The notes: generated by a model from the letters alone, not told the origin. DNA of 39,464 nt from Chiloscyllium plagiosum (GCF_004010195.1 NC_057754.1:4465681-4505144); one strand, 5' to 3'. Shown: positions 955-37,415, counted from the first letter of the stretch. A program made the numbers and translations.

Positions 955-1228
955 CTAAGTCTCTAATGTCCTTTCGCAGTCACTGCCAGTATCCATATCA
1001 TCATCCAGCACCACTACATAGAAGTTTCTTGTGTCATCATCCCCGACCTCAGCCCCGCTCGTTGTTTGGGCTGCTGCTCTATGTGCCCCAGTGTTCGTGT
1101 AGTAGACCTCACCCTGGTCCTCGAGGATGGGCAAGGTGGACAGAAGTTCCTGGAGAAGTGATCTGAGCTCAGCAAAGGTTGGTCGCTGTCCTGGATTCAG
1201 GAACCAGCAGCTGAGCATGAGGTGGTAC
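955..1228 (-). CDS. RTK terminal exon: kinase C-lobe end and C-terminal tail
   Basis: Acceptor ttctcttcccag. Reads (L)[29 protein letters not shown]...EVYYTNTG...CERTLET*. Confidence 0.93.
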
Positions 1229-7200: not shown

Positions 7201-10200
7201 TTTCACCAGGTTAGGGGAGTCCAAAACTAGAGGACATAAGTTTAAGGAGTGAGGGGAAAGATTTAAAAAGGACCTGAGGGGTAACTTTTTCATGCAGAGG
7301 GTGGGGCATGTATGGAACAAACTGTCAGAGAAGATAGTGGGGGCTGGTACAATGACAACACTTAAAAGGCATCTGGATGTGTATATAAATAGGAAGCGTT
7401 TAGAGGGATATGAGCCAAATGCTGGTAAATGGGACTAGATCAGGTTGGGATATCTGGTTGTTGCATCCATGGTATCCATGTCAATGTTCTGACACGTCTT
7501 GCAGTGGTTGCTATGACAGGGTTGTACAGTGATGTTGTCTTTAGTATCCATTACACGTGGGGACACCATGTACGCAGTGAGTACCCGTGTGACTCGGTCA
7601 ACGTTGTCTATCTCATACGCTGCAGGCAAGGATGACCTGAGGCATGGTACATTGGCGAGACCAAGCAGCCGCTACGACAACAGATGAATGGGTACCGCAC
7701 AACAATCACCAGGCAGGAGTGTTTCCTCCCAATTGGAGAACACTTCAGCGGTCCGGGACATTCGACCACAGACTTTCAGGTGACCATTCTCCAAGGTGGA
7801 CTTCGGGACAAGCAACAATGCAGAGTGGCTGAGCGGAGGCTGATAGCCAAGTTCAGTACCCATGGGAATGGCTTCAACCTTGACCTTGGGTTCATGTCAC
7901 ATTACAGGTGACCCCATTGAACTATACACTCTCTCACACACATGCACACCTCTACATACTCGCAGACCCACACAGACCCCCTCTCATATGTGCAAACATA
8001 TACTGCCTGCACTCACACCCACACCTGCACCATCTCACAGGCATATACCCCATCACTCTCTCTCACACACACTTAACCAAGCTTACACACACATATACTG
8101 TACACGCACACTCTAACACATGCACTCACACCCACATGCACACACTCACTCTGTCTCTCCTACATGCGCACACATATAAGTTTATGGGGTAAAATTGTTT
8201 TTGCAGAATTACATTTTATTTTGCTCAAAACCTGCATGGATCCATGTAAGATTCTGTAAACCCCACTTTAGAAATATAACCAGTCTGACTCAACATTGGG
8301 ACACAGACAGACCTCACACCTTAATGCATTGTCTAAGCTGAGATGGCACCTACTATTAGTAAAGCTAAGATGTCTTGAGAATGTAATTTAAAAGAAGTTG
8401 AATAATTGAATCCCTACAGTGTGGAAATAGGCATTTCGGCCCAACAAGTCCACACTGACCCCTCTGAAGAGTAACCCACCTAGACCCATTTCCCTCCCTA
8501 CTATCCTACATTTACCCCTGACTAATGTACCTAACCTACACATCCCTGAATGCTATGTGCAATTTAGCACGGCTAATTCACCTAACCTGCACATATCTTT
8601 GGATTGTGGGAGGAAACCAGAGCACCCAGAGAAAACCCACGCAGACATGGGGAGAATGTGCAAACTCCACGCACACAGGCGACTGAGGCTGGAATCAAAC
8701 TTGGGCCCCTGGTGCTGTGAGGCAGCAGTGCGAACCACTGAACCACCGTGCTGCCCCAATTTTACATTCTGAGATTTACACATTAAAGAACAGAAACCAG
8801 CATATCCCATTCTAAAAGATGAAAGACTGAATCTAAAATTGTTTAATGTATCATTATTACATCTCCATGACACTGTACTGTGGCTATGAATTCTGTGTCT
8901 TATGGTCTTCTCCACAACCACCTGATGAAGGAGCAGTGCTTTGAAAGCTAGTGTTTCCAAATAAACATGTTGGGCTATAACCTGGTGTTGTGTGATTTTT
9001 CACTCTGTCCAGCCCAGTCCAACACCAGCACCTCCAAACGTAACAGATCAGGCAGGGTTTCTGTTCCTCATCCAATGACCACTTTGGAAAGCATCCTGTC
9101 TCAGACCATCTGGTCGGGAGGCAATGGGATTGGCATTCAATGGTGACTCCCTCTATTTTACGACACTCTGGTTCACATAGCTATCTGGTGGAAGGGAATG
9201 GAATTGGGGTTTGCCTGTGACATACTTCATTGCATGGCAGTCACTGCTTCAGATCAAAGAACATGCTTGACTTCAGTTCCTGCTTTTGTGCCATCAGAAC
9301 ATAAGAAATAGGATCAGGAATAGGCCATCCAGCCCCTCGAGCCTGCTCCGCCATTCAAGAGGATCATGGCTGATCTTTCTGTGGATTCAGCCTGAATTCT
9401 TCTACTGTTCAAAAATCTATCTTTGCCTTAACAACATTCTGTGGAGCATCTCCAGCACCATAAGGAGAGGACCAGAAGCTATGCTCACTTCTCTGCCAAC
9501 CCTGAAAATGATTCCTGGTCTCTCCTCACTCATACCTCCAGCAGCTAAATACAAAAACGTGGCATACCACATCGCTTTTTGTTGTGTAGATTGACTCTGC
9601 CATGCTCTCAATGGCCATCCATTTCACAGGCATCTTTGAGACTGCCCTCTGCCGGTAGTAATTACTGGCGTAGATCTTTTTAGACAACCCAAAATCAGCA
9701 ACGCAAACCCGCATACTGTCACACAACCTGTGCAAAAGGAATTAGAGTTAGAGAGAGGAGACTATTCATGTAATCAACCAGAATGCTTTCAGCTCTCATT
9801 TCCAGTGCTACCCAGCCTGCTGTGCCAAAGTCCTTCAAAAGTTATCTCGAGTGTTTCAGTCCTGAGATTCCTGAGTACAATCCCACCCTAATTCAGCACT
9901 GAACAGTCTCACGTGGGGACGTCATAGACTAGTTGGTGTGAGTGAATAGAAATCACCTCAAACTGACACAGTGTAGAAAGCTGTTCTCCAAGGCTACTGT
10001 TTGAGTAGATTTGAAGGAACATTATTCCATGCTATAAACTGTCCTGGGAGAGTTTGATGGTGAAAATGTGAATGGAGCTTTACATTGTATCTAACCGTGT
10101 GTTGTACCTCTCCTGGGAGTATTCAACAGGGTGTAGACAGAGCTTTATTCTGTATCTAACCCTATGCTGTCCCTGTCCTGGGAGTGTTTGATGGGGGACA

Positions 10201-13200
10201 GTGTAGAGGGAGCTTTACTCTGTATCTAACCCCGTGCTGTCCCTGTCCTGGGAGTGTTTGATGGGAGACTGTATCTAACTCTGTACTATAACTATCCTGG
10301 TGCGTTTGATGGGGGCAGTGTAAAGGAAGGTTTACTCTGTATCTAACCCCATGCTGTCCCTGTCCTGGGAGTGTTTGATGGGAAGACTGTATCTAACTCT
10401 GTACTATAACTATCCTGGTGCGTTGATGGGGGCAGTGTAGAGGAAGGTTTACTCTGTATCTAACCCTGTACTGTAACTGTCCTAGGAACGTTTGATGAGA
10501 GCAGTGTATAAGAAGCTTTACTCTATCTAAACACATGCTGTCCCTGCCCTGGGAGTGTTTGATGGGGACAGTGTAGAGGGAGCTTTGCTCTGTAACTAAC
10601 CCCGTGTTGTCCCTGTCCTGGGGAGTGTTTGATGGGGGACAGTGTAGAGGGAGCTTTGCTCTGTAACTAACCCCGTGCTGTCCCTGTCCTGGGGAGTGTT
10701 TGATGGGAACAGTGTGGAGGGAGCTTTACTCTGTATCCCCTGCCCTGGGAGTGTTTGATGGGGACAGTGTAGAGGGAGCTTCGCTCTGTAACTAACCCCG
10801 TGCTGTCCCTGTCCTGGGGAATGTTTGATGGGGGACAGTGTAGAGGGAGCTTCGCTCTGTAACTAACCCCGTGCTGTCCCTGTCTGGGGAGTGTTTGATG
10901 GGGGACAGTGTAGAAGAAGCTTTACTCTGTATCTAACCCCGTGCTGTCCCTGCCCTGGGAGTGTTTGATGGGGACAGTGTAGAGGGAGCTTCGCTCTGTA
11001 ACTAACCTCGTGCTGTCCCTGTCTTGGGGAGTGTTTGATGGGAACAGTGTGGAGGGAGCTTTACTCTGTATCTAACCCCGTGCTGTCCCTGTCCTGGGTG
11101 TGTTTGATAGGGACAGTGTGGAGGGAGCTTTACTCCGTATCCTGCTTGACCATGCCCACTCCTCACCTCACAACTCTACATGGTCACTTTCCAAAGGGAT
11201 TCACCGGGTAGCAACTTATGATCTTTTTTTTGGTATTTTCGAATCAACCTGTTCAGAGATGTCACGACCTCTAGAGTAGGTGGGAATATGAGCCCATGCC
11301 TCCTGGCTCAGAGGTAGGGATACTACTACTGCACCAGAAGAGCCTAGCCCGTGTTTTTCATTTAATGCCATGCCTGACCCAGTTCAGGTGCTAAGACTAT
11401 TTTTGTGCTCCTGTCAGTGTTTCTACTGTGACCATCTAAATCATCACGGAGTCCAAGAATCAAATGAAAGGTCATAATGGTGTGTATGGCTTCGTTCCAT
11501 CTCGGGCAATTAAAAACCCAAATGGTGGTGGGTTATTAAAAAGGGAGCTAAATAGGCTGCCAAAGAAGATAATCACAAACCCTGAATGACACACCCAAGC
11601 CACCTAGGGGCTAAACACGACTCACATGCAATTCCGAGCTGCCAGGTCTCTGTGTAGAAAGCCTTGGTTACTCAAATACTCCATCCCTGAGGCAATGTCA
11701 ATCATGAACTTCAGGATGACCTGCAGAGGTATGTACTAGGAAAAGAAAGAGATACTGTCTTAATGTCAAGCACGTTGAAACATTTCCAATATTCGGCCAT
11801 GATTTCAGCAATGCGTTAGCACCATCTCGTCTTTGAGTCAGAACACTTTGGGATATAGCTGCCAACCTGGAAACCTGAACACTTAATCCAGACCAACATT
11901 CCCAGTGCAGTACTGAGGGAATGCTGCACTATTTGAGATTCTAAATGAAATTTTAAGCTCAAGTTTCCATCTGACTTCTCAGGTGAACCACAAAAGTGCC
12001 ATTGTATTTGAAGAACAGCTAAGTAGTTTTGACTGCTATCCTGGTCAATGCTTAACCTTCAATCTGTTGTTCATGAGACCTTGCTGCATGCAAACTACTG
12101 CTACATTTCCCACAGAACAAAATGGTACCTAAACTTCAAACTAAGTGGCTACAGATCTCTATGGGGTACCCGAGATAATCAAAGGTCCTATATAAATCAC
12201 AATGTAATTTCTCTTTGACTCTATAGAGATCCCTTCATTCCATTCAGCCTCTATACTCATCCCTACACATCGACCAATAACCCATTTTTAAACATTCATT
12301 CATGGGATGTGAGCACCAACTGGCTGGGCCCAGCATTTATTGCCCATCCCTAGTTGTCCATGAGAGGGTGGTAGTGAGCTGCTTTCTTGAACCATTGCAG
12401 CCCATTTGCTGTAGGTAACTTGCAAAACCCTTTTTCCAGCTTTTACCCAGCAACTGGTGTTTGGTGTTCTCATAGCTTTCAAATAGCAATCTCTGAATAT
12501 CTCCATCCTCTAGGATGGGGGAGCCTAGCACATTAGTGTGAGAGATATAGCTAAAACATCCACAACGGGATGATCCTATTCAATCTTCTTTAGAATCAGT
12601 TTCCAGTCTCCAGCCAATTTGGTTCACTCCATGTTATAGGTTATAAAACCTGACAATAGCACTGTGCTCCAGAACTTGCCGGACCCCTAGCCAAGCTACA
12701 ACACTGGGATCTAGCCGACAACATGGAAAATTGTCCAGGTAGGTCCTGTATATAAAATGCAGGACAAATCCAAATCAGAAATTACCACCCAATCAGTCTA
12801 CTCTTGATCCTCAGTAAAGTGATGGAAGGGGGTCATCAACAGTGCTCCTAAGCAGCATTTGCTTAGCAATAACCTATTCACTGACGCTCAGTTTGAGTTT
12901 TACTAGGGTCACTAACCTTCTGACCTTATTATAGCCTTGGTTGAAACATGGACAAAATCGTTGACCTTCAGAGGTGAGGCGAGAGTGACTGCGCTTGACG
13001 TCAAGGCCTCATTTGTCCTCAAGGAGCCCAAGCAAAACTAAAGCCAATGGGAACTGAGGGGCAGGGGGTTTGGTTTGAGTCATAAATAGCACAAAGGAAG
13101 TGGCTGTGGTTGTTGGAGGTCTGTCATCTCTGAGGAGTTCCTCAGACAAAAACAATGCAAAACCTGCTCCATCAATGACCTTCCCTCCACCATAAGGTCA

Positions 13201-19200: not shown

Positions 19201-22200
19201 ACATACAAGACTATATTTACATACATTTGAGGAACTGGGAGGGTCCAATAGCTGAATGGACACCCAATTAACTTCAGCAGGAAGACCTTAGACAGCAGTC
19301 TTCCCCACTACACCTTGGTGGCAGCTGTCCCAAGCATCAGTGCATACATCAGCACGTAGCCCAGGACCTTGGAATGTGCCAGTCTGCACTCTCAGTTGAG
19401 GTCAACTCCTTGCTCTGGAAAACCAACAAGTTTTGGGCATAGAAAAGAGCGTCTTTGACTAAATTGATGGTCATCCAGGCGCAGTCGATGTTTGTCTTGC
19501 TGTGTGTCCCAGGGAACAGACCATAGAGCAGAGAGTCCTGTGTCATGGAACTGCTTGGGATGAGCCTTGACAAAAACCCGCACTGCTTCTGAAGGTTTTC
19601 TGAAAACCTTATAGTTCTCTGTGCCCTACCCTCCTAAAAGCTGCACCAGTATGAACTTTTCAATGAACATGGGTCAAATTCCAAGTGGCCTTGTGAGCAG
19701 TGGCAGTGTCCCTACCTCTAGGATAGAGGGTCCAAGTTCAAGTCCCACTTACCCCAGAGGTGTGTCACAACATGTGATCTTCGCCCTATACAAGCAGCTG
19801 CATCACTGGTTCATGCAAAGTTATTGTTTGGGTCATGAGATCATTGCGTCTGCACATGCCCAGTCTGCACTCACATGAAGCATTGTGAGCAGCTTAAAGA
19901 CTGCAACACCTACAAAGCAGATCATATATATTCTCAAAAGCAACTGCTTCACATCTCATTTTATGTCGGACATCAATTTGTAAACATGATAAAATAAACT
20001 CCTGTGCTGACTCTGACCTGTGACCTCCCATGGTCCTGGGAAATCTGCCATCCAGATCTGAGGCATCCAGATTTCACAGGTTCAATCGAATAACATATCT
20101 GAGCAGGTTGATAGAAAATATCTCAAATTCATTCTCTAATGAAGCAGCATGTTTTTTGTCACATACATGACAACACTACAACACAAGAGAATAGACAGTG
20201 TTGAAATGAGGCAATGTTTTGCTTTAGAACAACATGCTACTAGAATGTAAGCCAATACGTTTAATGTTGTTTGATGCATTTTGTGTGGTATTCTTAAACC
20301 TTCAGATCAAATTCCTCCCTTCATCAAATTCCTTCCTGTTTTCTCCCACTGCAGAGAATCCAACTGACTAACCCTCTTCCTATTCATTTCCACGACACAG
20401 AATCCCAGCCGACCAACGCCCTTACCATCGGCTCGCACTGTTCAGAATCCCAACAGATCAACCTTTTTCCATTCACTCCCACCACACAGAATCCCAACAA
20501 ATTAACACCGTTCCCATTCACTCCCACTGCTTAGAATCCCAATGGATCCAGCCCCTTCCTATTCACTCCCACTACACAGAATCCCAATGGACTAACCCCC
20601 TTCCCACTTACTCCCACCAGACAACATCTCAGTGGATCAACCTCTTTCCTATTCACTCACATAGGATCCCAACTGGGCGAATTCCATTCCCATTCATTGC
20701 TACTATCTCGAATCCAAGCCACTTCTTGTTCATTGCACACCCCATAGATTCCAAAGGATCAAATCTTTTCCTCCACGTATAAAATCTCAACAGATCGAAT
20801 GTCCCATCACTCAAAGACTTCAATACCAAATACCTTTTCACCAGTTATCTTAACCCACTGCAGCATGTCTTAAATTCTTCAAGATCTGACTCCACAGGTT
20901 TCTAACTTACGTTTCATTGTCTTAACAGCGACGTTCTGGTTGATGCCCGTGGATTGCTTGAGTATTCCCTGGTACACTGAGCCAAATTCACCTAAATACC
21001 AGGGATAAGAGACAGAAGGGTCAGCACACCAATACTGTTCCAGCTGCCATGAACAATATCATCCTCTGAATTAAACTGGAAAACTTTGTTGGCAATTGCT
21101 GTGCGCTCTGTCTAGCATGGTACTGACCCCTGCACACCTGGATAGCCTGTACCAAGTTAGCCACTCTCAGGTAAGACTATACTTGAGGGGGAATGAGCAT
21201 TTGGAGTGTTACTTTGTTGATAGGGAGAAGAGAGACAAGTATTTGACAGTGGTGGGAGTGGGGAGGAAACCAGAGTTCCTGCACCTGATCTTTTCCCAGT
21301 GACTTCAGTTGTGACAGGTAGCAACAGAATCGAGTCGCACTGTTGTGACACCCTCACGATCAGTGGAGGCTCAGACACAGAGGTCCTGGAAGGATTTAAG
21401 TGCTCATCGAACTGTAGTACAGCAAGACAATGCCACCAGGAAAAGATGGGAGGAAATGAAACCAGACATTGAATTAATGAGAAACACAAAGCTAAGGGCA
21501 TGAAGCAGAAGAGACGGCAATGGGCATTTCAGAAGCAGAGGTCAAAGAGCCATTGTCTTTTTGGAGATGTACAGCAAACCTTCCTCAGTCCGTGGACCAT
21601 CATTCACATACGTGCTGCTTATCACGGATGCAACCTTTGTGATCCGAACACAGCATATGCATGTATTGCCTTAGGAGTCAGCTGCAGACAGAGTGGGTAG
21701 CATCTTTTGCCTCTGGGCTGGAAATGCTGTGACCGGAAAGAGAGGTGTGGCACCATGTTAATGTCCATGGACTAGTAATCCACCCAGGACATGGGTTCAA
21801 ATCTCACCCATGGCAGCTGGTGGAATTTGAACATGATTCCTGGAATTCTATAAGGGTGGGAAATCTGCAGTCCTTACCTGGTCTTGCCTCCACGTGACTC
21901 CAGATCCTCAATGATATGCTTGACTCTGAAATGGGCTAACTACATAGTCCAAAGGCAATTAGGTTTGGACAATAAATGCCATATCCCATGAAACAATACA
22001 TTTTGAAAATGTCACACTTCAGAGACATGAGGACCTAATCGATGTTGACACTCTCAGTTATGTCTTTTGGGCTTGGTAACTTGAGGTCCAGCTGCCTTTT
22101 CAGTCAGACAGAAAAGATCCCACAGTTACTAATCATAAACGTACAGGAGAGTTCTGTCAATATTTATCCCTCAAACACCTCACCAACGCAATTTGTCTGA

Positions 22201-25200
22201 TTGTTGTTTGTGGAAGCTTGCGGTGTCTGAAATAGGCTGCCAGGTTTCAACATTTCGACCAGTGACGACGCTTCAGAAGTACCTTGTTAGCTGCCATGCA
22301 TTTTGTTGAGAAAGGTGCTCGATAAATGCAAGGCCTCTTTCCTATTTCCACATACCTTCGCCAAGGATTTGACCCAGGGACAGAGAGCTCCTTTCCACCA
22401 TCACCTTCTTCAGGTTCAGCTTCAGAGAGTCACTGATACCGAGATGCTGCACTAGAAATAAAAAAAGCAAGATATGATCAGAGGAGGCAGCGTACGGCAA
22501 GAAGACGTGACAAAGAAATGTGAGCGTGCCAGAGAGAAAGAGAGAACAGGGACAAGGGTGGAGAAAGAGGAGTGGCAGAGAAGCACTGAGACCAGTAAGA
22601 AAGAAGGAAGGAAAGGAATACGTAAAGTCATTGAGTCATAGAGGTTAACAGCACGGAAACAAACCCTTTGGCTCAAACTGCCCAAGACATCCAGTTTTCT
22701 CAATTAAACTAATCTCACTTGCCTGTGTTTGGTCCATATCCCTCCAGACCCATCCCATCCATGTACTGTCTGAATGTTTCTTAAATGACAAAACTGTACT
22801 CACCTCCACCACTACCTCTGGCAGCCCGTTCCAGACACTCACCACCCTCTGTGTGAAAAAATTGCCCCTCTGGACCCTTTTGTATCTCTCTCCTCTCACC
22901 TTAAACCAATGCTCTCTAGTTTTGGACGCCCCTAGCAATGGGAAAAGCTGTTGGTTAACTACCATTTCTATGCCCCTCATGATTTTACATACCTCTATAA
23001 GGTCACCCCTCAGTCTCCTCTGCTCCAGGGAAAAGAATCCCAGCCTCTTCTTATAACTCAAACCTTCTAGTCTAGGTAGCATCCCAGTAAACCTTTTCTG
23101 TGCTGTTTCTGGTTTAATAATATTCTTTCTACAGCAGGGCGCCCAGAACTACTCGCATGTGGCCTCACCAACGTCTTGTACAGCTGCAACAAGACATCCC
23201 ATCTCCGACACTCAATGCTCTGACTGATGAAAGCTCCACGCCAAAAGCCTTCTTCACCAGCCTGTCTTCCTGTGACTCCTGCCTACCTGAATACTTGTAC
23301 AGAAGAACATACAGACTGAACCGTGGCCAATCCAATGACTTACATCGGCCCTCTTCAGTTTCCTTCCTGTAGGATCTTCCTGTGTTGAGTGGGACCAGCT
23401 GTGATTTTGTTCCTGTTTTGCACCTGGGAAATGAATTGTGTAGAGAAATCTATCCAAGACAAGTTAAAACCTTATGGTCACATACACTTCCTGCCCAGAA
23501 GAACATACTTTCTGCTGTCAAGTTGGTGTCCCATATTTTGAGTCAACTTTTTCCATTATAAATTTCTATGGTCTGCATGTGTAATAGAAGTTACCCACAT
23601 AGTATTGAGTCTACAGCACAGATACAAGCCATTCAACCCAACCTCTCATGTCGGTGTCATTCTCCATTGATACTTCTCTCTTCTTCTCACCCATTGGTTT
23701 CTAACCCAATAATAACTCTTTACTATTCCTTTTTTGTTCATGTGTTTATCTGAGATGGAGCGAACAGGAGCAGCAGTAGGCCATTTGACAGATCGAGCCC
23801 ACTTTGCCATTGCTATGATCATGGCCCGATGCCCAATTGCAATACCACCCTCCTGTGCTCCCCCCATGCCCATTCAGTGTTTAGAAATGTATTTCTTTTT
23901 TAAGTATATGTAGTGACTTGGCCCCAACAGCCTCATGCTGTGGAGCATTTCACAGGTCCATCAGCTTCTCAGTGAGGACATTTCTTCTCATCACCGTGCT
24001 AAATGTCCCCTTCTACATCCTGAGGCTGAGTCATCTTATTCTAAACCCCCCAGGGCATGTATCAGCTCTGCATCCAATCTCTCCAGCCTGTCAGAATTCT
24101 TTGTTCAATGCAATCACCTTTCCCTTCCAAACTCCAGGGCATACAGGCCTGGCTGACCCAGTCTCGCCTCACACGACAACCCTGCCATCACAAAGATGAG
24201 CATTTACTATACTCTCTCCCTCAGAACTATACTTCTTCTGAGGTAAGGAGACTAAAGCTGCACAAAATACTCTAAGTCTAGTCTCACCAAGGCTCTGTAC
24301 AGCTGCAGCAAGATACCCCTGCTCTTGTACTCAAATTCTCTTGCAACAAAGGCCAACATATCATTTACATTCTTAACTGCTTGCTGTACCTGCATGCTTG
24401 TTTTTAGTGACCGGTGTAAAAGGACACCCAGTGGGTTCCTTTCTATATAAAATTTCCCAATCTATCATAATTTAAGTCATATTCAGCCATTCTGTTTTCC
24501 TACCAAAGTGAATAACTGCACACGTATTCATGTTATTTTCCCGTTCATGCAACTTGTCCAAATCACCTCTTTAGATCCGCCACACCATTCATCTGGTTTC
24601 ACTTTAATTGTGTCTATGTATCTATCAATGCCTCTCCATGGGCTCGATAGGGTGGAATCTAGAACTGGGGGCACTGTTTCATAGTAAAAAGCTTTAGGAT
24701 TGAAATGCAAAGTAATTTCTTCACTGAGAGGGTGGTGAGTCTTTGGAATTTTCTACCTCTGAGGGTGGTGCAGTCTCAGTCATTCAGGATATAGAACAAT
24801 AGATTTCTAGACATTAAAGATACCAAGGGGTCGGGATATAATGGCATTCAGGTAGAGAATCAGCCAACGATCCAGTTGAGGAGGTTCAATGGGCAAAATG
24901 GCCTATCCCTACTTCTATTTTCTATGTTCCTATTTATCTCTTCTGCTTTGTGTGGGTGTGGGTATATCAGAGAGTGTTACAGTGAGGGGTGTGGGGTATA
25001 TCAGAGAGTGTTACAGTGAGGGGTGTGGGGTATATCAGAGAGAGTTACAGAGAGGGGTGTGGNNNNNNNNNNNNNNNNNNNNNNNNNNNNNNNNNNNNNN
25101 NNNNNNNNNNNNNNNNNNNNNNNNNNNNNNNNNNNNNNNNNNNNNNNNNNNNNNNNNNNNNNNNNNNNNNNNNNNNNNNNNNNNNNNNNNNNNNNNNNNN

Positions 25201-28200
25201 NNNNNNNNNNNNNNNNNNNNNNNNNNNNNNNNNNNNNNNNNNNNNNNNNNNNNNNNNNNNNNNNNNNNNNNNNNNNNNNNNNNNNNNNNNNNNNNNNNNN
25301 NNNNNNNNNNNNNNNNNNNNNNNNNNNNNNNNNNNNNNNNNNNNNNNNNNNNNNNNNNNNNNNNNGGTATATCAGAGAGTGTTACAGTGAGGGGTGTGCG
25401 GTATATCGGAGAGTGTTACAGTGAGGGGTGTGGGGTATATCAGAGAGTGTTACAGTGAGGGGTGTGGGGTATATCAGAGAGTGTTACAGTGAGGGGTGTG
25501 GGGTATATCAGAGAGTGTTACAGTGAGGGGTGTGGGGTATATCAGAGAGTGTTACAGTGAGGGGTGTGGGGTATATCAGAGAGTGTTACAGTGAGGGGTG
25601 TGGGGTATATCAGAGAGTGTTACAGTGAGGGGTGTGGGGTATATCAGAGAGTGTTACAGTGAGGGGTGTGGGGTATATCAGAGTGTGTTACAGTGAGGGG
25701 TGTGCGGTATATCGAAGAGTGCTATAGTGTGCAGTATATCAGAGAATGCTATAGTGAGGGGTGTGGGGCATATCAGAGAATGCTGCAATGAGGGGTGTGG
25801 GGTACATCAGAGAGTGTTACAGTGAATGATGTGGGTTTGATCAGTGGAATATCAGTGTTAATTTAAGGGGTCTCGGGTAACTCGGATTAGAGTGTTACGG
25901 TGATTGTAATTGTAGAGTGTTACGGTGATTGTAATGTGTCTGTTCCTCAGACAGGGTTTAATTCTTACTTGTCCTTCATTTTCATTCTCCAACTGACAAA
26001 CAAGCCAATGAACAGCACTAGCACCAGCAGTGCACCTCCAAATGCTGCCAGTATGACCCCAGACTGTAGATCTCCATTGTGAATAGTTGGTACAGCAGTT
26101 TTGGTGGTGAGGTCTTGATTCTCAATCTCTGTGTGATACAAACAGAAAAATTGTTAGTGAGGATGTTAACAAGTGAGATAACTGCCTTCAGTAATGCAAT
26201 GACCATGTCTTTCACCTGTTCCAATGAGCTAGCCACCAATCATTGTCTACATTTAATATAGTTAGGTAATAACCCGCAAGGAACTTATATACTGTGCAGA
26301 GATTTCTCTTTCTTTACTTTTTCCTTGGATGTGGGCATTATTAGCAAAACAAGCAGAGTGGCTCAGTGGTTAGTGCTGCTGCCTCACAGCATTTGTTCAA
26401 TCCCAGTCTTGTGCAACTGTCTCAAGTTTGCATTTTTGGGAAAGCAAATCTTAGCAGGACTTATACACTTAATGGTTAGGTCCTAGGGAGTGTTAAAGGA
26501 GAAAGTGAGGTCTGCAGATGCTGGAGATCAAAGTTGAAACTTTATTGCTGGAACAGCACAGCAGGTCAGGCAGCATCCAGGGAACAGGAGATTCGACGTT
26601 TCGGGCACAGGCCCTTCTTCAGGAATGAAGGGAGTGTTGCAGAACAAAGAGACCTGAAGTGCAGATTCATAGCTCCTTGAAAGTGGAGTCGCAGGTAGAT
26701 AGGATAGTGAAGAAGGCGTTTGGTATGCTTTCCTTTATTGGTCAGAGTATTGAGTACAGGAGTTGGGAGGTCATATTGCGGCTGTACAGGACATTGGTTA
26801 GGCCCACTGTTGGAATATTGCATGCAATTCTGGTCTTCTTCCTATCGGAAAGATGTTGTGAAACTTGAAAGGGTTCAGAAAAGGGTGGTGCGTGTATGGA
26901 ATGAGCTGCCAGAGGAAGTGGTGGAGGCTGGTACAATTGCAACATTTAAGAGGCACCTGGATGGGTATATGAATAGGAAGGGTTTGGAGGGATATGGACC
27001 GGGTGCTGGCAGGTGGGACTAGATTGGGTTGGGATATCTGGTCGGCATGGATGGGTTGGACCAAAGGGTCTGTTTCCATGCTGTACATCTCTATGACTCT
27101 ATCTGTGTGGGCTTCCTCTGAGTGATCCAGTTTCCTCCCACAGTCCAAAGATGTGTAGGTTAGTGTGCACTGGCTGCACTATGTTGCCCATAGTGTCCAG
27201 GGGATGTGAAGACTAGGTGAGTTGGCTGCTGGAAATGGAGGGAAGGTGGCGAGATGCTTTTTGGAGGAACAGTGCAGACTCAAAGGGATGAATGGCTTCT
27301 TCCTGCACTGTAGGGATTCTATAATTTGTGCCCATCCCCAAGTACCATTGAACTAAGCAACTTACTAGGCCATTTCTGAGCCAAACACATTGCTGGGGTT
27401 CCCTTTCCTTAAGGACATTAGTGAACCAGACGAGTTTTTCAACAATGGTTTCACGGTGATCATTGGATTTTTAATTCCAGATTTTTATTGAATTCAAATT
27501 TCACCATCTGCCATAGAAAGATTATCTGGATTAATATTCCAGCGATAATACCACCGGGCCTTTGCCTCCCTGCTATCAGTGCAGTAATCTACATAAGGTC
27601 CACTTGATGAGCTTTTACTTTAGGGATCTGCTGTTCAGTTGAGAGATTTGTGTTACCTTCACCATACACTCAATTTGTCCCATGGATACAGAAAAACACA
27701 GATGTGTGATATTATCGTCCATTGTCACATCAAGCAATAGGTTTACTGACTCTGGGATCTACCCAATGGGTGCAGGAGACCTTGGGTTCCTCCACCACGA
27801 TCCTATTTACCCCCCTGTGTACATGAAGATGGAAGGGAGCTGTTCATCCCTCTGGTTGATATCACTGACTGATGTGACTGAACAACATCATTTGTTTAAA
27901 ACTCTAAAACCTCCCCAGATGGATGGACTGTCACCATTGTATAAAAAAGTGGTCAAGGTCACTCGTAAAAACATGTTTATGCATTAATTTGCGATATCGC
28001 ACAGTACAACTTCGACCCCAAGGGAGCCCTAGCATCGGACCATACCTACCAGTGTTCCCAAGTTAAAAACAAATAAAGATTTGTAACAATAAAGAAAATC
28101 AACACATCCCAAACTGCATTACAACCAATCAAGGACTTTGGAAGTGTAGTAACCTTTGAAATATTGCTGCAAATTGCACATAGCATGCTGCCACAAATAG

Positions 28201-30235
28201 AAGGATGATAATGACCGGGTAATAAACTTTAGTGATTTCAGTTGTGAGCCCTCAGGTCCTGTTTTTCATTGAAAAAGGACATTGAATGCTTATACCCAGT
28301 TGAGATGGGCTTCCATTTGATATTGCCTCTGGAGAACAGCACCTCATGCTGTGCAGCGCTAACTCAGTACTGCACTGGGGCACCTCCTGCTGTGCAGCGC
28401 TAACTCAGTACTGCATTGGGGCACCTCCTGCTGTACAGCACTCCGTCAGTACTGCATTGGGACACCTCCTGCTGTAAAGCACTCCCTCAGTACTGCATTG
28501 GTACACCTCATGCTGTACAGCACTCCCTCAGTACTGCAATGGGGCACCTCCTGCTGTATAACACTCCCTCAGTACTGCATTTGCACACCTCCTGCTGTGC
28601 AGTGCGCCCTCAGTACTGCATTGGGACACCTCCTACTTTACAGCACTCCCTCAGTACTGCATTGGGGCACCTCCTGCTGTGCAGCACTCCCTCAGTACTG
28701 CATTGGGGCACCTCCTGTTGTACAGCACTCCCTCAGTACTGCATTGGTACACCTCATGCTGTACAGCACTCTCTCAGTACTGCATTGGGGCACCTCCTGC
28801 TGTATAACACTCCCTCAGTACTGCATTTGCACACCTCCTGCTGTGCAGTGCGCCCTCAGTACTGCATTGGGACACCTCCTACTTTACAGCACTCCCTCAG
28901 TACTGCATTGGGGCACCTCCTGCTTTACAGCACTCCATCAGTACTGCATTGGGACACCTCCTGCTGTATAGCACTCCCTCAGTACTGCATTGGGGCACTT
29001 CCTGCTTTACAGCACTCCCTCAGTACTTCATTGGGACACCTCCAGCTGTGCAGCACTCCCTCAGTACTGCATTGGGACACCTCCAGCTGTGCAGCACTCC
29101 CTCAGTACTGCATTGGGACACCTCCTGCTGTACAGCACTCTCTCAGTACTGCATTGGGGCACCTCCTGTTGTACAGCACTCCCTCAGCACTGCATTGGGC
29201 ATCTACTGCTGTACAGCACTCCCTCAGTACTGCATTGGGGCACCTCCTGCTGTGCAGCACTCCCTCAGCACTGCATTGGGGCATCTACTGCTGTACAGCA
29301 CTCCCTCAGTACTGCATTGGGGCACCTCCTATTGTACAGCACTCCCTCAGTACTGCATTGGGACACCTCCTGCTGTGCAGCACTCTCTCAGTACTGCATT
29401 GGGGCACCTCTTGTTGTACAGCACTTCCTTAGTACTGCATTGGGACACCTCCTGCTGTGCAGCACTTCCTTAGTACTGCATTGGGACACCTCCTGTTGTG
29501 CAGCACTTCCTTAGTACTGCATTGGGACACCTCCTGCTGTGCAGCACTCCCTCAGTACTGCATTGGGGCACCTCCTGTTGTACAGCACTCCCTCAGTACT
29601 GCATTGGGGCACCTCCTGTTGTACAGCACTCCCTCAGAACTGCATTGGGGCACCTCCTGTTGTACAGCACTCCCTCAGCACTGCATTGGGGCCCCTCCTG
29701 CTGTACAGCACTCCCTCAGTACTGCAATGGGGTGTCAAGCTAAACATTGCATAAAAACCCCTTGGATGAGACTTGAATTTACAAACTTGTGGCTCAGAAG
29801 ATGGAAGCACTGCGCATTGATCCATGGCCGATGTGTGATTTTGATGATTAAAGGTGTCAAAGATTATTTGGCAATAACTGCACAGAAAAATCAGTGAATT
29901 GTAGCAGCTGTAACAGTAGTACATTGAAGCACAGAATGGCTCCCCCGCCTCTCCAGGATATATACAGCTTCCAATATTTTCCAGGTTTACTTTCTACCCA
30001 TGGAGAAAGTTTCTTCAGTGTATATCTCCTATTTCGCACGAACACTGACAATTTTCGCTGTAATGCTTCTTACCGTAGGCAGTGCAAGCAGCCGACGGAG
30101 AGTGTGCCTCAGTCCTGTTGTAACCACTTAAACATGGGCAGGAGACAGAGGCCTCAGTATCGGAATGACTGTTGGTGGGGCATTTGGTGCAGTCGCCGTG
30201 CCCTGGTGTGTCCTTGTAATATCCTATTTTACAAG
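955..30235 (-). CDS. Multi-exon TAM-family-like receptor tyrosine kinase with an Eph-type cysteine-rich ectodomain module (5'-partial; 11 exons reconstructed)
   Basis: Exons 30074-30235, 25969-26128, 23344-23423, 22356-22451, 20911-20991, 17736-17828, 13777-13898, 11626-11735, 9568-9727, 4836-4972 and 955-1228 splice with GT-AG and matching phases into one frame ending in TAG at 955-957. Motifs [52 protein letters not shown] and SDVWSFG are present. It cannot be confidently assigned to AXL, MERTK or TYRO3. Confidence 0.9.
1315..1780 (+). mobile_element. Rex1/Babar-like LINE 3' fragment with a small insert
   Basis: Degenerate IIKDPSxP.YTLF...GRR...[15 protein letters not shown] reading, followed by a 3' tail ending aataataaatcaaatcaaa. 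Confidence 0.65.
2050..3365 (-). mobile_element. Tx1/L1-clade LINE fragment (RT C-terminal region)
   Basis: YMDDIAIF motif near 3345-3360 and ORF 2989-3192 (LGIWFGGAG...KVRQKLDLW...LLYVAQVW). The frame is disrupted. Confidence 0.8.
3380..3685 (-). mobile_element. tRNA-derived SINE (second family), inverted relative to the copy at 3960-4295
   Basis: Reverse-complement similarity to 3960-4295 (gagtcaaccacattg, ggtgaaccagatgggtt, aaattccaccagctgcc). Confidence 0.6.
3960..4295 (+). mobile_element. tRNA-derived SINE (second family); other copies at about 21745-21995 (+) and 27330-27570 (-)
   Basis: B-box-like ggttcaaacc, shared core tagggaaggaaatctgcc...gtgactccagacccacagcaatgtggttgactct, and a LINE-like tail. 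Confidence 0.65.
4836..4972 (-). CDS. RTK kinase exon (137 nt)
   Basis: Acceptor cattcacag, donor GTAAG. Reads [45 protein letters not shown](L). Confidence 0.95.
5228..5912 (-). mobile_element. HE1-like tRNA SINE with an internal 53-bp tandem expansion
   Basis: The minus strand starts gtggctcagtggttagcact...ggttcgattcc (A/B boxes) and has the ggtttcctccca-tagtccaaagatgtgcag core. caatttagca recurs at 5508, 5561, 5614, 5667 and 5720. Confidence 0.85.
7010..7458 (+). mobile_element. CR1/HER1 LINE 3' fragment
   Basis: Degenerate [13 protein letters not shown]...SKTRGHKFK...RGNFFMQRV reading and the typical tail gagggatatgagccaaatgctgg. Confidence 0.85.
7457..9038 (+). mobile_element. Penelope-like element (GIY-YIG endonuclease end plus 3' region), interrupted by a SINE
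   Basis: Reads [36 protein letters not shown]...EHFSGPGH...AERRLIAKF...GFN, then a CA-rich tail. It resumes after 8757 with a ctgatga...gaaa motif. Confidence 0.8.
8410..8757 (-). mobile_element. HE1-like tRNA SINE, near full length
   Basis: The minus strand starts gggcagcacggtggttcagtggttcgcactgctgcctcacagc and has a CR1-type tail ending ccacactgtagggattc. Confidence 0.9.
9568..9727 (-). CDS. RTK activation-loop exon (160 nt)
   Basis: Acceptor ttttgcacag, donor GTATG. Reads (M)[53 protein letters not shown]. Confidence 0.96.
10030..11140. repeat. About 70-bp minisatellite (gggagtgtttgatggggacagtgtagagggagctttactctgtatctaaccccgtgctgtccctgtcct)
   Basis: Period 70 (for example 10180 and 10250), roughly 16 units, some internally deleted. 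Confidence 0.95.
11626..11735 (-). CDS. RTK catalytic-loop exon (110 nt), missed by the ORF track
   Basis: Acceptor cttttcctag, donor GTGAG. Reads [36 protein letters not shown](M). Confidence 0.95.
11805..12215 (+). mobile_element. DeuSINE (SacSINE1/AmnSINE1-like), old copy
   Basis: cagtgcagtactgaggggaatgctgcact...tctcaggtgaa...tatttgaagaacag...tcctggtcaat...ctatataaat follows the Deu-domain order as I recall it. Confidence 0.7.
12660..13405 (+). mobile_element. LINE reverse-transcriptase fragment (CR1/L2 group)
   Basis: Degenerate [17 protein letters not shown]...[15 protein letters not shown]...[10 protein letters not shown] and INDLPS...IFTADCTMF readings. Confidence 0.75.
13777..13898 (-). 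CDS. RTK hinge exon (122 nt)
   Basis: Acceptor attttccatag, donor GTAAC. Reads (G)[40 protein letters not shown]. The [13 protein letters not shown] motif is TAM-like. Confidence 0.94.
13990..14500 (+). mobile_element. CR1/HER1 LINE 3' fragments
   Basis: ORF 14287-14496 ([29 protein letters not shown]) and the CR1 tail. Confidence 0.8.
14670..14968 (+). mobile_element. HE1-like tRNA SINE
   Basis: gggtggcatggtggctcagtggttagcactgcagcctcacag...gggcctgtttccacactgtagggaatctaatc. Confidence 0.9.
14985..15435 (-). mobile_element. CR1-type LINE 3' fragment
   Basis: ORF 15160-15441 ([20 protein letters not shown]). Confidence 0.75.
16300..17252 (+). mobile_element. Penelope-like element 3' part (GIY-YIG endonuclease) with terminal hammerhead-like motif
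   Basis: CHCRNCKTC...[37 protein letters not shown]...VAEHFNSPS...[20 protein letters not shown]. There is a 29-bp tandem duplication at 16573-16630. Confidence 0.88.
17736..17828 (-). CDS. RTK alphaC exon (93 nt)
   Basis: Acceptor ttctctttcag, donor GTACA. Reads (H)[30 protein letters not shown](G). Confidence 0.93.
18108..19078 (-). mobile_element. CR1/HER1 LINE 3' part (about 1 kb)
   Basis: ORFs 18710-19114, 18499-18747 and 18194-18469 ([43 protein letters not shown]), with a (ttctatg)n-type tail. Confidence 0.92.
19082..19595 (-). mobile_element. Tx1/L1-clade LINE 3' end, related to 2050-3365
   Basis: Shares ttggaatgtgccagtctgca...ccaacaagttttgggca...gcgcagtcgatgtt with 2190-2315. ORF 19349-19573 reads [10 protein letters not shown]...[13 protein letters not shown]. 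Confidence 0.75.
20335..20800. repeat. Degenerate 44-45-bp tandem repeat (cccattcactcccactacacagaatcccaatgga...)
   Basis: gaatccca recurs at about 20400, 20445, 20489, 20533 and 20578. Confidence 0.75.
20911..20991 (-). CDS. RTK Gly-loop/VAVK exon (81 nt)
   Basis: Acceptor gtatttag, donor GTAAG. Reads (G)[26 protein letters not shown]. Confidence 0.94.
21690..22340 (+). mobile_element. DeuSINE-like element with a nested tRNA SINE (about 21745-21995)
   Basis: gaaaagatcccacag...caatatttatccctcaa...gtttgtggaagcttgc...ggctgcc...cttcagaagtac...ataaatgcaag. Confidence 0.6.
22356..22451 (-). CDS. RTK juxtamembrane/kinase-start exon (96 nt)
   Basis: Acceptor ttttttatttctag, donor GTATG. Reads (L)[31 protein letters not shown](G), which resembles the TAM LGxSxxL...LGxxLGEG segment. 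Confidence 0.92.
22628..23278 (-). mobile_element. CR1/HER1 LINE 3' fragment
   Basis: ORF 22645-23082 ([36 protein letters not shown]...[17 protein letters not shown]). Confidence 0.9.
23344..23423 (-). CDS. RTK juxtamembrane exon (80 nt, phase 2-1)
   Basis: Acceptor tcatttcccag, donor GTAAGT. Reads (K)[26 protein letters not shown](L), resembling the AXL-type KSYSRRTTEATL segment. It bridges the phases of the flanking exons exactly. Confidence 0.82.
23755..24570 (-). mobile_element. Degenerate CR1/L2-type LINE fragment
   Basis: Shares CR1 landmarks (ctcaccaaggctctgtacagctgcagcaag, aaggccaacat, tgtaaaaggacaccca). Confidence 0.6.
24955..25825. repeat. 34-bp minisatellite (ggggtatatcagagagtgttacagtgaggggtgt) spanning an assembly gap
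   Basis: Near-identical units lie on both sides of the N run and decay towards 25825. Confidence 0.95.
25063..25365. other. Assembly gap (303 N)
   Basis: Run of N bases. Confidence 1.
25969..26128 (-). CDS. RTK stalk plus transmembrane exon (160 nt, phase 1-2)
   Basis: Acceptor tcacacag, donor GTAAG. Reads (E)[52 protein letters not shown](K): a hydrophobic helix followed by a basic stop-transfer segment. Confidence 0.88.
26355..27322 (+). mobile_element. HE1-like SINE split by a CR1 fragment (about 26437-27102), which itself contains a 134-bp Penelope-derived insert
   Basis: SINE head gtggctcagtggttagtgctgctgcctcacagc at about 26358 and SINE body resuming tctgtgtgggcttcctctgagtgatccagtttcctcccacagtccaaag at about 27102. 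CR1 ORFs lie at 26659-27022. Confidence 0.85.
26591..26626 (-). ncRNA. Minimal type I hammerhead ribozyme motif (Penelope-associated)
   Basis: AUUC-CUGAAGA-A-GGGC-CUGU-GCCC-GAAA-C-GUC-GAAU: the core CUGANGA/GAAA, stem II GGGC/GCCC, stem I AUUC/GAAU and a GUC cleavage triplet are all present. Confidence 0.75.
28095..29815 (-). mobile_element. DeuSINE-like element hosting the 41-bp array
   Basis: 28100-28340 resembles the reverse complement of the Deu-domain 3' part. 29730-29815 (gtgtcaagctaaac...gacttgaatttacaaacttgtggctcaga) resembles its 5' part. Confidence 0.6.
28340..29730. repeat. 41-bp minisatellite (cagcactccctcagtactgcattggggcacctcctgctgta), about 34 units
   Basis: Head-to-tail units with no unique spacers. 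The array generates the long repetitive ORFs in the track. Confidence 0.97.
30074..30235 (-). CDS. Eph-receptor-type cysteine-rich/EGF-like exon (162 nt, phase 1-1)
   Basis: Acceptor ctcccacag, donor GTAAG. Reads (A)[53 protein letters not shown], matching the Eph pattern CxxGYYK...CxKCPxxSxS...CxCxxGYxR...CT. Contains an NRT sequon. Confidence 0.88.
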
Positions 30236-30304
30236 CTGTGGGAGGGACAGAATAAATCAATAAACGGTAAACAGGTAAAAATATTCAGTTCTGGATTGTT
30301 AAAA

Positions 30305-32837: not shown

Positions 32838-33330
32838 CATCGAGTCATACAACACAGAAACTGACCCTTCAATCCAACTCGTCCACGGCGACCAGATATC
32901 CTAAACTGATCTAGTCCCATTTGGCCCATATCCCTCTAAACCCTTCATATTCATATACCCATCCAGGTGCTTTTTAAATGCTGTCATTGTACCAGCCTCC
33001 ACCACTTCCTCTGGCAGCTCATTCCGTACACGTACCACCCCCTGCATGAAACAATTGTCCCTCGGGTCCCTTTTAAATCTTTCCCCACTCACCTTAAACC
33101 TATGCCCTCTAGTCTGAGAGAAAGACCTTGGCTGTTCATCCCATCCTTGCCTCCTCACGATTTTATAAACCTCTATAAGGTCACCCCTCAGCCTATGACG
33201 CTCCAGGGAAAACAGCTCCAGCCATTCTGCCTCTCCCTATAGCTCAAACCCTCCAACCCTGGCAACACCCTTGTGACTATTTTCTGAACCCTTTCAAGTT
33301 TCACAACATCCTTCCTATAGCAGGGAGACT
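32838..33330 (-). mobile_element. CR1/HER1 LINE 3' fragment inserted in a DeuSINE-like element (about 32580-33485)
   Basis: ORF 32901-33158 (TRGHRFKV...[23 protein letters not shown]), with Deu-like sequence on both flanks. Confidence 0.85.
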
Positions 33331-35704: not shown

Positions 35705-35920
35705 ATCCCAAACAATCCCAGGATAGGGACAACATGGGGTTAGATACAGAGCAAAGCTTCCTCTACACTGTCCCCCATCAAACACTCCCAGGACAGAGAC
35801 TGCATGGGGTTAGATACAGAGCAAAGCTTCCTCTACACTGTCCCTCATCAAACACTCCCAGGACAGGGACAGCACAGGGTCTATACTGTTGCCATTAATG
35901 CTCCCAGGACAGGGACACCT
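35705..35920. repeat. Short inverted copy of the 70-bp minisatellite family
   Basis: ggggttagatacagagcaaagcttcctctacactgtcccccatcaaacactcccaggacag is the reverse complement of the 10030-11140 unit. Confidence 0.9.
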
Positions 35921-36294: not shown

Positions 36295-37415
36295 CATTGC
36301 ATTTGTTGTTTATGCAAATGATTTGGATGTGAATACAGTAGGTGCGCTTAGCAAGTTTGCAGATGACACCAGAATTGGTGGCGTAGTGGACAGTGAAGAA
36401 GGTTACAGTGACTGAGAGAAAGTGAGGACTGCAGATGCTGGAGATCAGAGTTGAAATGTTTGGAGCTGGAAGAGCACATCAGGTCAGGCAGCATCCGAGG
36501 AGCAGGAGGATCGATGTTTCGGGCATAAACCCTCCATCAGGAGTGTGATGAAGGTTACCTCAGAGTACAACGGGACCTTGATCAGATGGGCCAATGGGCT
36601 GATGAGTGGCAGGTGGAGTTTAATTTAGGTAAGTGTGAGGTGTTACATTTTGGTACGGCAAATCAGAGCAGAACTTGTACATGTAATGGTAGGGCCTTGG
36701 GGAGAGTTGCCGGACAAAGAGATCTAGAGGCAGATCTGCACAGTTCCTTTCAAGTGGAATCACAGGTAGACAGGGTAGTGAAGAAGACATTTGGCACGTT
36801 TGCCTTCATTGGTCAGAACACTGAGCATAGGACTTGGAATGTCATATTGCAGCTGTACAAAAATTGGTTAGGCCCGTTTTAGAATATTGCATTCAATACT
36901 GGGTTCCCTATGATAGGAAAGATGTTGTTAAACTTAGAAGGATTCAGAAAAGATTTACAAGTTGGAGGGTTTGAACTATAGGGAGATGCTGAATAGGCTG
37001 GGGCTGTTTTCCATGGAGTATCAGTAGCTGTGGTTATAGAGGTTTATAAAATCACTGCCAGAGGCTGAGGGGTGACCTGATACAGGTTTATACAATCATG
37101 GATAGGGTGAATAGCCAAGATCGTTTCCCACGGTAAGGAAGTCCCAAATTACAGGGCATAGGTTCAAGGTGAGAGTGGAAAGGTTAAATAGGGACCTGAG
37201 GGCCAACTTTTTCACGCAGTGGGTGGTGTGTATGGAATGACCTGCCAGAGGAAGTGATGGACCTAATAACATTTAATAGGCATCTGGATAGGTACGTGAA
37301 AAGGAAGGGTTCGAGGGATATGGGTCAAATGCTGGTAAATGGCACGAGATAAGTTTAGGATATCTGGTTGGCATGGACAAGGGTCTGTTTCCACATTGCA
37401 AAACTCTATGACTCC
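36295..37415 (+). mobile_element. CR1/HER1 LINE RT-to-3' fragment with a 143-bp Penelope-derived insert
   Basis: LFVVYANDLD...SKFADDTRIGG reading, and ORF 36586-36882 (WADEWQVEFNLGKCEVLHFG). Confidence 0.9.

Follow-up and report, generated by a model that had tools for sequence, protein, structure and literature searches.

A probable Eph-TAM hybrid receptor tyrosine kinase gene of Chiloscyllium plagiosum with relatives in cartilaginous and bony vertebrates

Here, we describe a receptor tyrosine kinase (RTK) gene in a 39,464-nucleotide (nt) stretch of the genome of the shark Chiloscyllium plagiosum (contig C45:4465681-4505144 of a 3.56-Gb assembly; this whole stretch is referred to as the window). 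We conclude, with a probability of roughly 0.8, that the window covers the last eleven exons, at the 3′ end, of a functional single-pass RTK, the elasmobranch ortholog of an ancient fusion gene of jawed vertebrates, in which the extracellular part derives from an Eph receptor and the kinase from a receptor of the TAM (TYRO3, AXL, MERTK) family. Vertebrate RTKs comprise ∼20 subfamilies that are sorted by ectodomain and, to our knowledge, a kinase lineage is commonly regarded as retaining its own type of ectodomain. An earlier note, made from the sequence of the window, had proposed that the gene combines an Eph-type cysteine-rich ectodomain with a TAM-type kinase and represents a fourth TAM-like lineage. 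The gene model, the domain content of the complete protein, separate trees of its two halves, and its occurrence in other vertebrates all bear on this proposal.

Gene structure and complete protein

The gene lies on the minus strand. Its 11 exons in the window, all with GT-AG borders, run from 30235 to 958, followed by the stop codon at 957-955, and encode residues 268-758 of a 758-amino acid (aa) receptor. A tblastn search with the 758-aa protein of the shark Hemiscyllium (P0001) returned 11 blocks from 30236 to 958 that cover the same residues with 79-100% identity per block, intron overhang included. Exon junctions were determined by a brute-force search for frame-keeping GT/AG pairs, which gave one clear best solution at each junction. 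Motifs of tyrosine kinase genes, PVKWMAIES among them, were found in short minus-strand open frames. The earlier note had read 11 exons that splice in frame, and the joined frame is indeed open; the exon sizes that it gave (96/81/93/122/110/160/137 nt) match the computed model exactly, and the two junctions that it named, 30074->26128 and 25969->23423, are exact coordinates of this model.

In the direction of transcription, exon 4 (30235-30074; 162 nt, phase 1-1; residues 268-321) encodes the second half of the Eph-type cysteine-rich region. It has AG/GT borders, is 94% identical to P0001 by tblastn, and carries the Pfam domain Ephrin_rec_like. Exon 5 (26128-25969; 160 nt; residues 322-375; 94% by tblastn) encodes the stalk, the transmembrane (TM) segment, and the start of the juxtamembrane region, and exon 6 (23423-23344; 80 nt) a further juxtamembrane segment. 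Exon 7 (22451-22356; 96 nt), which is 100% identical to P0001, encodes TAM-type juxtamembrane sequence and the start of the kinase with the glycine loop; exon 8 (20991-20911; 81 nt) encodes the glycine loop and the VAVK lysine, exon 9 (17828-17736; 93 nt) the region of the alpha-C helix (FLREAELM), exon 10 (13898-13777; 122 nt) the hinge region, exon 11 (11735-11626; 110 nt) the catalytic loop HRDLAARN, exon 12 (9727-9568; 160 nt) the DFG motif and the activation loop, and exon 13 (4972-4836; 137 nt) the C-lobe. Exon 14 (1228-958, with the stop codon at 957-955) encodes the end of the kinase and a C-terminal tail with a YTN motif and no SAM.

At 5-9 kb past the right end of the window, C45 carries three more exons, likewise on the minus strand (their coordinates continue the numbering of the window). 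Exon 3 (45168-44511) is a single open exon of 658 nt with 91-92% identity to residues ∼47-267 of P0001, exon 2 (46159-46107) has 53 nt, and exon 1 (48664-48574) provides the ATG start and a signal-peptide-like beginning. When joined, the 14 exons give 2274 nt, i.e., 758 codons without internal stops, and the product is identical to P0001 at 716 of 758 positions in an ungapped comparison. Residues 1-267, all encoded upstream of the window, comprise the signal peptide, a full Eph ligand-binding domain (LBD), and the first half of the cysteine-rich domain (CRD). Thus, the Eph-type origin of the ectodomain proposed in the earlier note stands, while its description of the cysteine module as the whole ectodomain does not, the receptor having a full LBD and CRD. 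The sizes of 53, 658, and 162 nt resemble what we take to be the usual Eph exons 2-4.

Domain order, fold, and catalytic motifs

The order of elements in the protein is signal peptide, Ephrin_lbd, Ephrin_CRD, Ephrin_rec_like, a stalk of ∼25 aa, TM, and TAM-type kinase. The TM segment is a hydrophobic stretch of 21 residues that begins at residue 345, and the ∼25 residues from the last cysteine-rich residue to the membrane agree with the stalk length estimated previously. We scanned four shark proteins of this architecture, P0001 included, against Pfam. All four contain Ephrin_lbd (49.5-68.8 bits, cut-off 27; P0001, 57.5), Ephrin_CRD (34-42 bits; P0001, 38.9), and Ephrin_rec_like (24.8-30.5 bits; P0001, 30), the latter two likewise above their cut-offs, as well as PK_Tyr_Ser-Thr (293-296 bits; P0001, 296). 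By contrast, Pfam detected fn3, Ig, SAM (SAM_1/SAM_2), and EphA2_TM in none of the four proteins, in line with the earlier statement that no SAM follows the kinase, whereas nearly all canonical TAMs show Ig and/or fn3 under a like scan.

Comparisons with the PDB assign the two halves to different families. Exon 4 matches the cysteine-rich regions of EphB6 (1.5e-6) and EphA4 (1.7e-6) best, which accords with the claim that this extracellular exon is an Eph cysteine module recalling EphA4. When the product of exon 3 was folded, with 23 family members in the alignment, the model reached a predicted local distance difference test score (pLDDT) of 88.7; its best matches are the ectodomains of EphA4 and EphA2 (TM-score 0.77-0.80, E ∼1e-16, ∼31% identity), followed by EphB2 and EphB6. 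In the ESM Atlas, the best match (0.86) is an Ephrin_lbd/CRD cluster, which is a lead only and adds nothing to the above. The DFG exon, on the other hand, matches MERTK first (4e-21), AXL second, and TYRO3 third. The kinase retains the catalytic lysine, the alpha-C glutamate region, HRD, DFG, the activation loop, and, at residue 604, KWMAIES. In TAM receptors, the signature KW(I/L)A(I/L)ES replaces the usual ...APE motif; the hybrid has M at the first variable position, and MERTK has KWIAIES in the PDB alignment. The activation-loop tyrosines Y-x-x-x-Y-Y are present, and the kinase core is nearly invariant across the 23-sequence alignment.

Ancestry of the kinase and other TAM loci

In a kinase tree of 68 rows and 313 columns, built with careful IQ-TREE settings, the 20 hybrid kinases form one clade (support 100/99) within the vertebrate TAM group (92/90). 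Its two branches comprise 10 rows from cartilaginous fishes (100/99) and 10 from bony vertebrates (95/89), and the clade as a whole is separate from those of MERTK (100/100), TYRO3 (100/100), and AXL (95/95), as expected for the fourth TAM-like lineage of the earlier note. TAM-like kinases of amphioxus and hemichordates fall outside the vertebrate TAMs, as do three outgroup rows (∼1370-1390 aa, 41-45% identical) that were taken as MET/RON by length only. All named Ig-bearing jawed-vertebrate TAMs in the tree belong to the three canonical clades, and P0061, an unnamed Ig-bearing representative on a long branch, stands beside AXL. Kinase identity is 74-89% among 10 elasmobranchs, and the shark kinase is 57-64% identical to bony hybrid kinases and 59-63% to MERTK. 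The overall identity of representatives is ∼33-37% for Ephs and 50-60% for TAMs.

At the sensitivity used, the genome contains exactly four TAM-kinase loci. By tblastn, the locus on C3 is 82.6% identical to Heterodontus MERTK, the locus on C10 is 94.0% identical to TYRO3 of Rhincodon (whale shark), and the locus on C41 is closest to teleost AXL (69-72%). Because no shark AXL was among the comparison sequences and C41 was compared with teleost AXL only, its assignment is the weakest of the three. The canonical TAM genes whose presence elsewhere in this genome the earlier note suggested confirming, therefore, have matching loci, with AXL less closely matched, and the hybrid gene on C45 is the fourth TAM-kinase gene of the genome. 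The exon pattern that the earlier note likened to MERTK recurs in part: the MERTK-like and TYRO3-like loci both have GT-AG candidate exons of 122/110/160/137 nt, and the AXL-like locus has candidates of 110/160/137 nt. Exon-wise genome matches to the TAM loci break at residues ∼533, 570, and 622.

These observations bear on the idea that the gene is a true ortholog of MERTK, AXL, or TYRO3 with Ig/FN3 (fibronectin type III) exons further upstream and an Eph-like exon that is alternative or foreign. Such an origin would fit the names "Mer-like," "UFO-like," and "TYRO3-like" given by NCBI and the kinase identity of 61-63% to MERTK. However, the matches to MERTK, TYRO3, and AXL lie on C3, C10, and C41; the hybrid kinases form a clade of their own; and the upstream exons on C45 specify a signal peptide and the LBD of an Eph rather than Ig domains. 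As far as the tools go, the kinase tree and the paralogous loci refute this idea, and we give it almost no credence.

Ancestry of the ectodomain and the join between the two parents

The ectodomain tree comprises 47 rows and 300 columns, with isoforms and fragments excluded, and its Eph sampling is thin, EphA3, A4, A5, A8, B1, B2, and B6 being absent by name. In this tree, 23 hybrid ectodomains form one clade (100/100) among the Ephs, where they join EphA-type receptors (81/99), and EphB3, EphB4, and EphB5 stand apart. As in the kinase tree, the clade splits into a cartilaginous and a bony branch. Because both trees repeat the species split, the simplest reading is that of a single fusion before cartilaginous and bony vertebrates diverged. 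The shark ectodomain is 28-39% identical to bony hybrid ectodomains and 27-35% to Ephs.

Most bony-vertebrate relatives have one FN3 domain, and this domain matches the first FN3 of Ephs (best Eph E ∼1e-12 to 1e-26 depending on the query, at Eph positions ∼300-440); no canonical TAM was among the top 14 matches of each of five FN3 queries. Since the FN3 of the bony form is the first Eph FN3, the Eph-derived part once ran at least through this domain. Sharks and rays lack this domain, and neither intron 4 nor the rest of the 52 kb searched in the shark yielded an FN3 relic. The border between exons 4 and 5 is in phase 1 on both sides, so that loss of a phase-1-1 exon between them would keep the frame. 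Residues 322-402, which span the stalk, TM, and early juxtamembrane region, have no significant match to Eph or TAM proteins, and secure TAM similarity begins at exon 7.

At 14 or more other loci in the genome, a single open exon matches residues ∼47-268, i.e., the Eph LBD exon. These matches mark the ordinary Eph set on C2, C3, C12, C13, C27, and C34 and on two small contigs; one of them, L009, has an in-frame TAA.

An Eph-type ectodomain might still bind ephrins, in which case the protein would be an ephrin receptor with TAM-type output. The LBD scores above the Pfam cut-off and models confidently onto the ligand-binding domains of EphA4 and EphA2, and the ectodomain clade groups with EphA-type receptors (81/99). 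On the other hand, the LBD reaches only 57 bits, compared to 234-243 bits in two ordinary Ephs; it is no closer to Ephs than the 27-35% given above; and the shark and bony hybrid ectodomains have themselves diverged to 28-39% identity on top of a long stem branch. As judged from sequence, an LBD that has diverged so strongly is likelier to have a changed ligand than to bind ephrins in the classical way, and we regard ephrin binding as possible but rather doubtful.

Distribution and naming in other vertebrates

When the tail exon alone was used as query, four of four matches at E ≤0.001 were shark proteins with Ephrin_lbd and a kinase. In the ectodomain search, 11 of 25 listed proteins were elasmobranch proteins with this architecture, from nine sharks (Hemiscyllium, Stegostoma, Heterodontus, Cetorhinus, two Scyliorhinus, Mustelus, Heptranchias, and Pristiophorus) and two rays (Mobula and Pristis). 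Two more of the 25, teleost proteins of Gambusia and Anableps, contain a weak Ephrin_lbd, the CRD, rec_like, one fn3, and a kinase without SAM. An exhaustive search of representatives added seven 50%-identity clusters of the hybrid plan, i.e., Geotrypetes (a caecilian), Lissotriton (a newt), Protopterus (a lungfish), Thalassophryne, Acipenser, Arctogadus, and Danio rerio si:ch73-40a2.1, and further relatives were found in Huso, Myripristis, and Merluccius. Thus, the hybrid gene is not shark specific: the architecture that the earlier note suggested looking for in other lineages is present in other elasmobranchs, teleosts, sturgeons, a lungfish, a caecilian, and a newt. The caecilian entries are P0174/P0028 and the newt entries P0175/P0029. 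Among the matches listed, the hybrid was not seen in frogs or amniotes.

Pfam finds no FN3 in P0030 (Protopterus), P0033 (Arctogadus), and P0035/P0181 (Danio), in which the ectodomains have only ∼276-344 residues. Either the ectodomain seems to have been shortened more than once, independently, or these gene models are incomplete.

The absence from the amniote and frog matches listed, together with the repeatedly shortened ectodomain, which lacks FN3 in sharks, rays, and the cod, lungfish, and zebrafish models, could indicate a decaying or signaling-dead relic, such as a pseudogene, a pseudokinase, or a decoy. However, the frame is open with no catalytic motif lost, the 23 aligned sequences hardly vary in the kinase core, kinase identity among elasmobranchs is as high as 74-89%, and a spliced contig exists (see below). 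We, therefore, consider a relic distinctly improbable.

The names of these proteins in the source databases include Mer-like, UFO-like, TYRO3(-like), erbB-4-like, EphA2-like, EphA4-B(-like), EphA5-like, EphB1-like, LTRK 1, and HGF receptor(-like). Names that contradict each other in this way imply that annotation pipelines do not know the hybrid family.

Spliced contigs and the assembly gap

Contigs of four sequencing runs were aligned to positions 20850-30300 of the window. In run X8, which carries the species label of the window, record 25 (468 nt, 0 mismatches) aligns to 30237-30074 with its positions 130-293 and to 26128-25967 with its positions 294-455. It, thus, joins 164 letters at exon 4 directly to 162 letters at exon 5 at the predicted sites, and junction 30074->26128 of the earlier note is seen exactly. 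Approximately 129 letters upstream and 13 downstream in this record do not fit the aligned stretch. Contig pieces from runs X1 and X3 stop at 30074/30237 and 25967/26129. We infer that the spliced contigs derive from RNA; a processed DNA copy is the formal alternative. For the newt cluster, five Logan contigs of 4.1-5.2 kb, a transcript-like size, each hold the whole 852-aa protein.

The window contains a single assembly gap, 303 N at 25063-25365, which lies inside intron 5 and adjoins a tandem array of 13.7 copies of a 34-nt unit at 25366-25825. Because the gap abuts this array, it is probably an unresolved minisatellite rather than a join of unrelated pieces, and in proteins listed for 11 other elasmobranch species, the exons on its two sides are joined in the same order.

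A more radical alternative is that the hybrid is an artefact of assembly or annotation, in which a neighboring or misjoined Eph fragment and a TAM gene were fused by predictors. The gap does separate exon 5 from exon 6, and the supporting proteins are mostly automatic predictions with contradictory names. Yet the gap sits between the TM and kinase exons and not between the Eph-type and TM exons, besides abutting the tandem array. Moreover, the like order recurs in independent assemblies of the 11 other elasmobranch and at least nine bony-vertebrate species; neither half groups with an ordinary Eph or TAM gene, each forming its own clade instead; and a contig splices exon 4 to exon 5, while transcript-sized contigs of the newt hold the whole protein. 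The artefact explanation is, therefore, already largely refuted, and we see very little chance that it is correct.

Discussion

Our data are consistent with a scenario in which the 5′ exons of an Eph gene, encoding the signal peptide, LBD, CRD, and first FN3, were fused to the 3′ exons of a TAM gene, encoding the juxtamembrane region, kinase, and tail. The fusion would be older than the split between cartilaginous and bony vertebrates, which dates back well over 400 million years, and sharks and rays would later have dropped the FN3 exon(s) in frame. In Eph receptors, ligands are bound, and receptors brought into clusters, through the LBD and CRD. By analogy, the divergent Eph-type LBD/CRD of the hybrid may read an extracellular ligand or a cell-contact cue. 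Clustering would then bring TAM-type kinases together, so that the activation-loop tyrosines (Y-x-x-x-Y-Y) could be phosphorylated in trans, and a Y-x-N site in the tail might subsequently recruit Grb2-type adaptors in the manner of TAM receptors. The Eph-specific output, which involves juxtamembrane tyrosines, SAM, and a PDZ motif, would be absent. Binding of Gas6/Protein S is unlikely because the Ig domains are missing.

Compared to its presumed parents, the protein is mosaic. It resembles TAM receptors in that its kinase nests among theirs, and in its PDB matches, the KW-x-A-I-E-S and Y-x-x-x-YY motifs, and the sizes of the kinase exons. However, TAM receptors have two Ig and two FN3 domains, while the hybrid has no Ig, its shark form has no FN3, and its ectodomain is of the Eph type. 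With Eph receptors, it shares the signal peptide, Ephrin_lbd, Ephrin_CRD, and Ephrin_rec_like in Eph order, a 658-nt exon that covers residues ∼47-268 as do single exons at Eph loci, the predicted fold (TM-score 0.77-0.80 to EphA4/EphA2), and, in bony hybrids, the first FN3. It differs from them in lacking the second FN3 (sharks have none), the EphA2_TM region, the Eph kinase, and SAM, and its LBD is more divergent than that of any ordinary Eph examined. Zebrafish si:ch73-40a2.1 and the other bony relatives share both clades and the plan of Eph ectodomain and TAM kinase with the shark gene; unlike the shark form, most of them have one Eph-type FN3 between the cysteine-rich domain and TM.

Several observations weigh against an ancient, functional Eph-TAM fusion gene or complicate it. 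First, the kinase tree makes the hybrid clade the sister group of all remaining vertebrate TAMs, including those of cyclostomes, though only weakly (85/89). This placement does not fit cleanly with an ohnolog from the two rounds of whole-genome duplication (2R); the hybrid may be either a fourth 2R ohnolog with a long branch or an older duplicate. Second, the stem of the ectodomain clade is long (1.13 changes per column), and the LBD is very divergent (57 bits vs. 234-243 in the two ordinary Ephs scanned). Third, exons 5 and 6 match neither family, which blurs the position of the breakpoint. Fourth, none of the runs with this stretch is recorded as RNA (the labels are "RNA?" or "?", which speaks neither for nor against expression), and the origin of the spliced contig from cDNA is inferred. 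Fifth, only the joint between exons 4 and 5 was observed; those between exons 3 and 4 and, across the gap, between exons 5 and 6 are based on gene models of orthologs, most of them predicted automatically. Sixth, record 9 of run X2 (365 nt) covers 22451-22239 and, thus, includes the first 117 nt of intron 7 beyond the exon 7 donor; it may represent unspliced RNA, an alternative end or RNA, or DNA. Finally, two points concern the literature. The hybrid is only probably identical to the published "Axl-like" gene (see below), and the tetrapod loss described there (PMC4898815) is at odds with the hybrid found in a caecilian and a newt.

The earlier note had cautioned that additional AXL-like paralogs might already be catalogued, and this caution was apt. 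Brunet et al. 2016 (PMC4898815) distinguish four TAM genes, Tyro3, Axl, Axl-like, and Mertk, of which Axl-like is described as lost in tetrapods; the classification is based on the kinase domain, and the text consulted makes no mention of an Eph-type ectodomain. Most likely, the lineage of the hybrid kinase is this "Axl-like" gene, given that the genome has four TAM loci and that the named Ig-bearing TAMs fall into three clades only. In PMC7249569, "axlb" occurs once as a zebrafish gene name. We found no papers under the zebrafish gene name ch73-40a2.1 and none on an Eph ectodomain with a TAM kinase, in a search that left most subscription journals outside. A study of Eph evolution (Arcas 2020; PMC6993872) contains 0 mentions of Axl, Mertk, Tyro3, "chimer," or "hybrid," and one of the holozoan tyrosine kinome (Yeung 2021; PMC8662651) contains 0 mentions of Axl or TAM. 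Thus, the chimeric nature of the gene appears not to have been described before.

We lean, by a modest degree, toward a further conclusion, i.e., that the gene represents an unrecognized class of RTK, an Eph-TAM chimera of the jawed-vertebrate ancestor with a fast-evolving LBD for a new or modified ligand, which would turn an Eph-like contact or clustering cue into TAM-style signaling, is the same as "Axl-like," and was not lost in all tetrapods. If the hybrid is "Axl-like," then the current view of the "fourth TAM" gene, including that it disappeared from tetrapods, is corrected, and what is new is the Eph-derived ectodomain and the survival in caecilians and salamanders. More generally, two RTK subfamilies would have been recombined by exon shuffling, and the product kept since before the cartilaginous/bony split. 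The gene, therefore, is a naturally occurring system for asking if a kinase from outside the Eph family can be driven by ligand binding and clustering of the Eph type. It would also be an orphan receptor whose zebrafish ortholog, si:ch73-40a2.1, is open to knock-out, and it exposes widespread misnaming in public annotation.

Repeats in the window

Several repeats lie around the exons. One third of intron 4 is taken up by an array at 28339-29732 in which a 41-nt unit is repeated in tandem 34 times (89% matches); the minus strand of this array contains long repetitive open frames that could pass for coding sequence. Also in intron 4, the summed contig depths at 26222-27169 are 29,000-209,000 across all four runs with many variant letters, and this segment is a very abundant interspersed repeat. 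Arrays of a ∼70-nt unit occupy 10039-11142 in intron 11, and a related 70-nt unit occurs at 35709-35871, upstream of exon 4; the unit seems to belong to a repeat family that is both dispersed and arranged in tandem blocks. Reverse-transcriptase-like open frames at 18197-19129, 22648-23148, 32901-33236, and 36529-36882, found on both strands, resemble what are presumably retrotransposon fragments in the introns and the upstream region.

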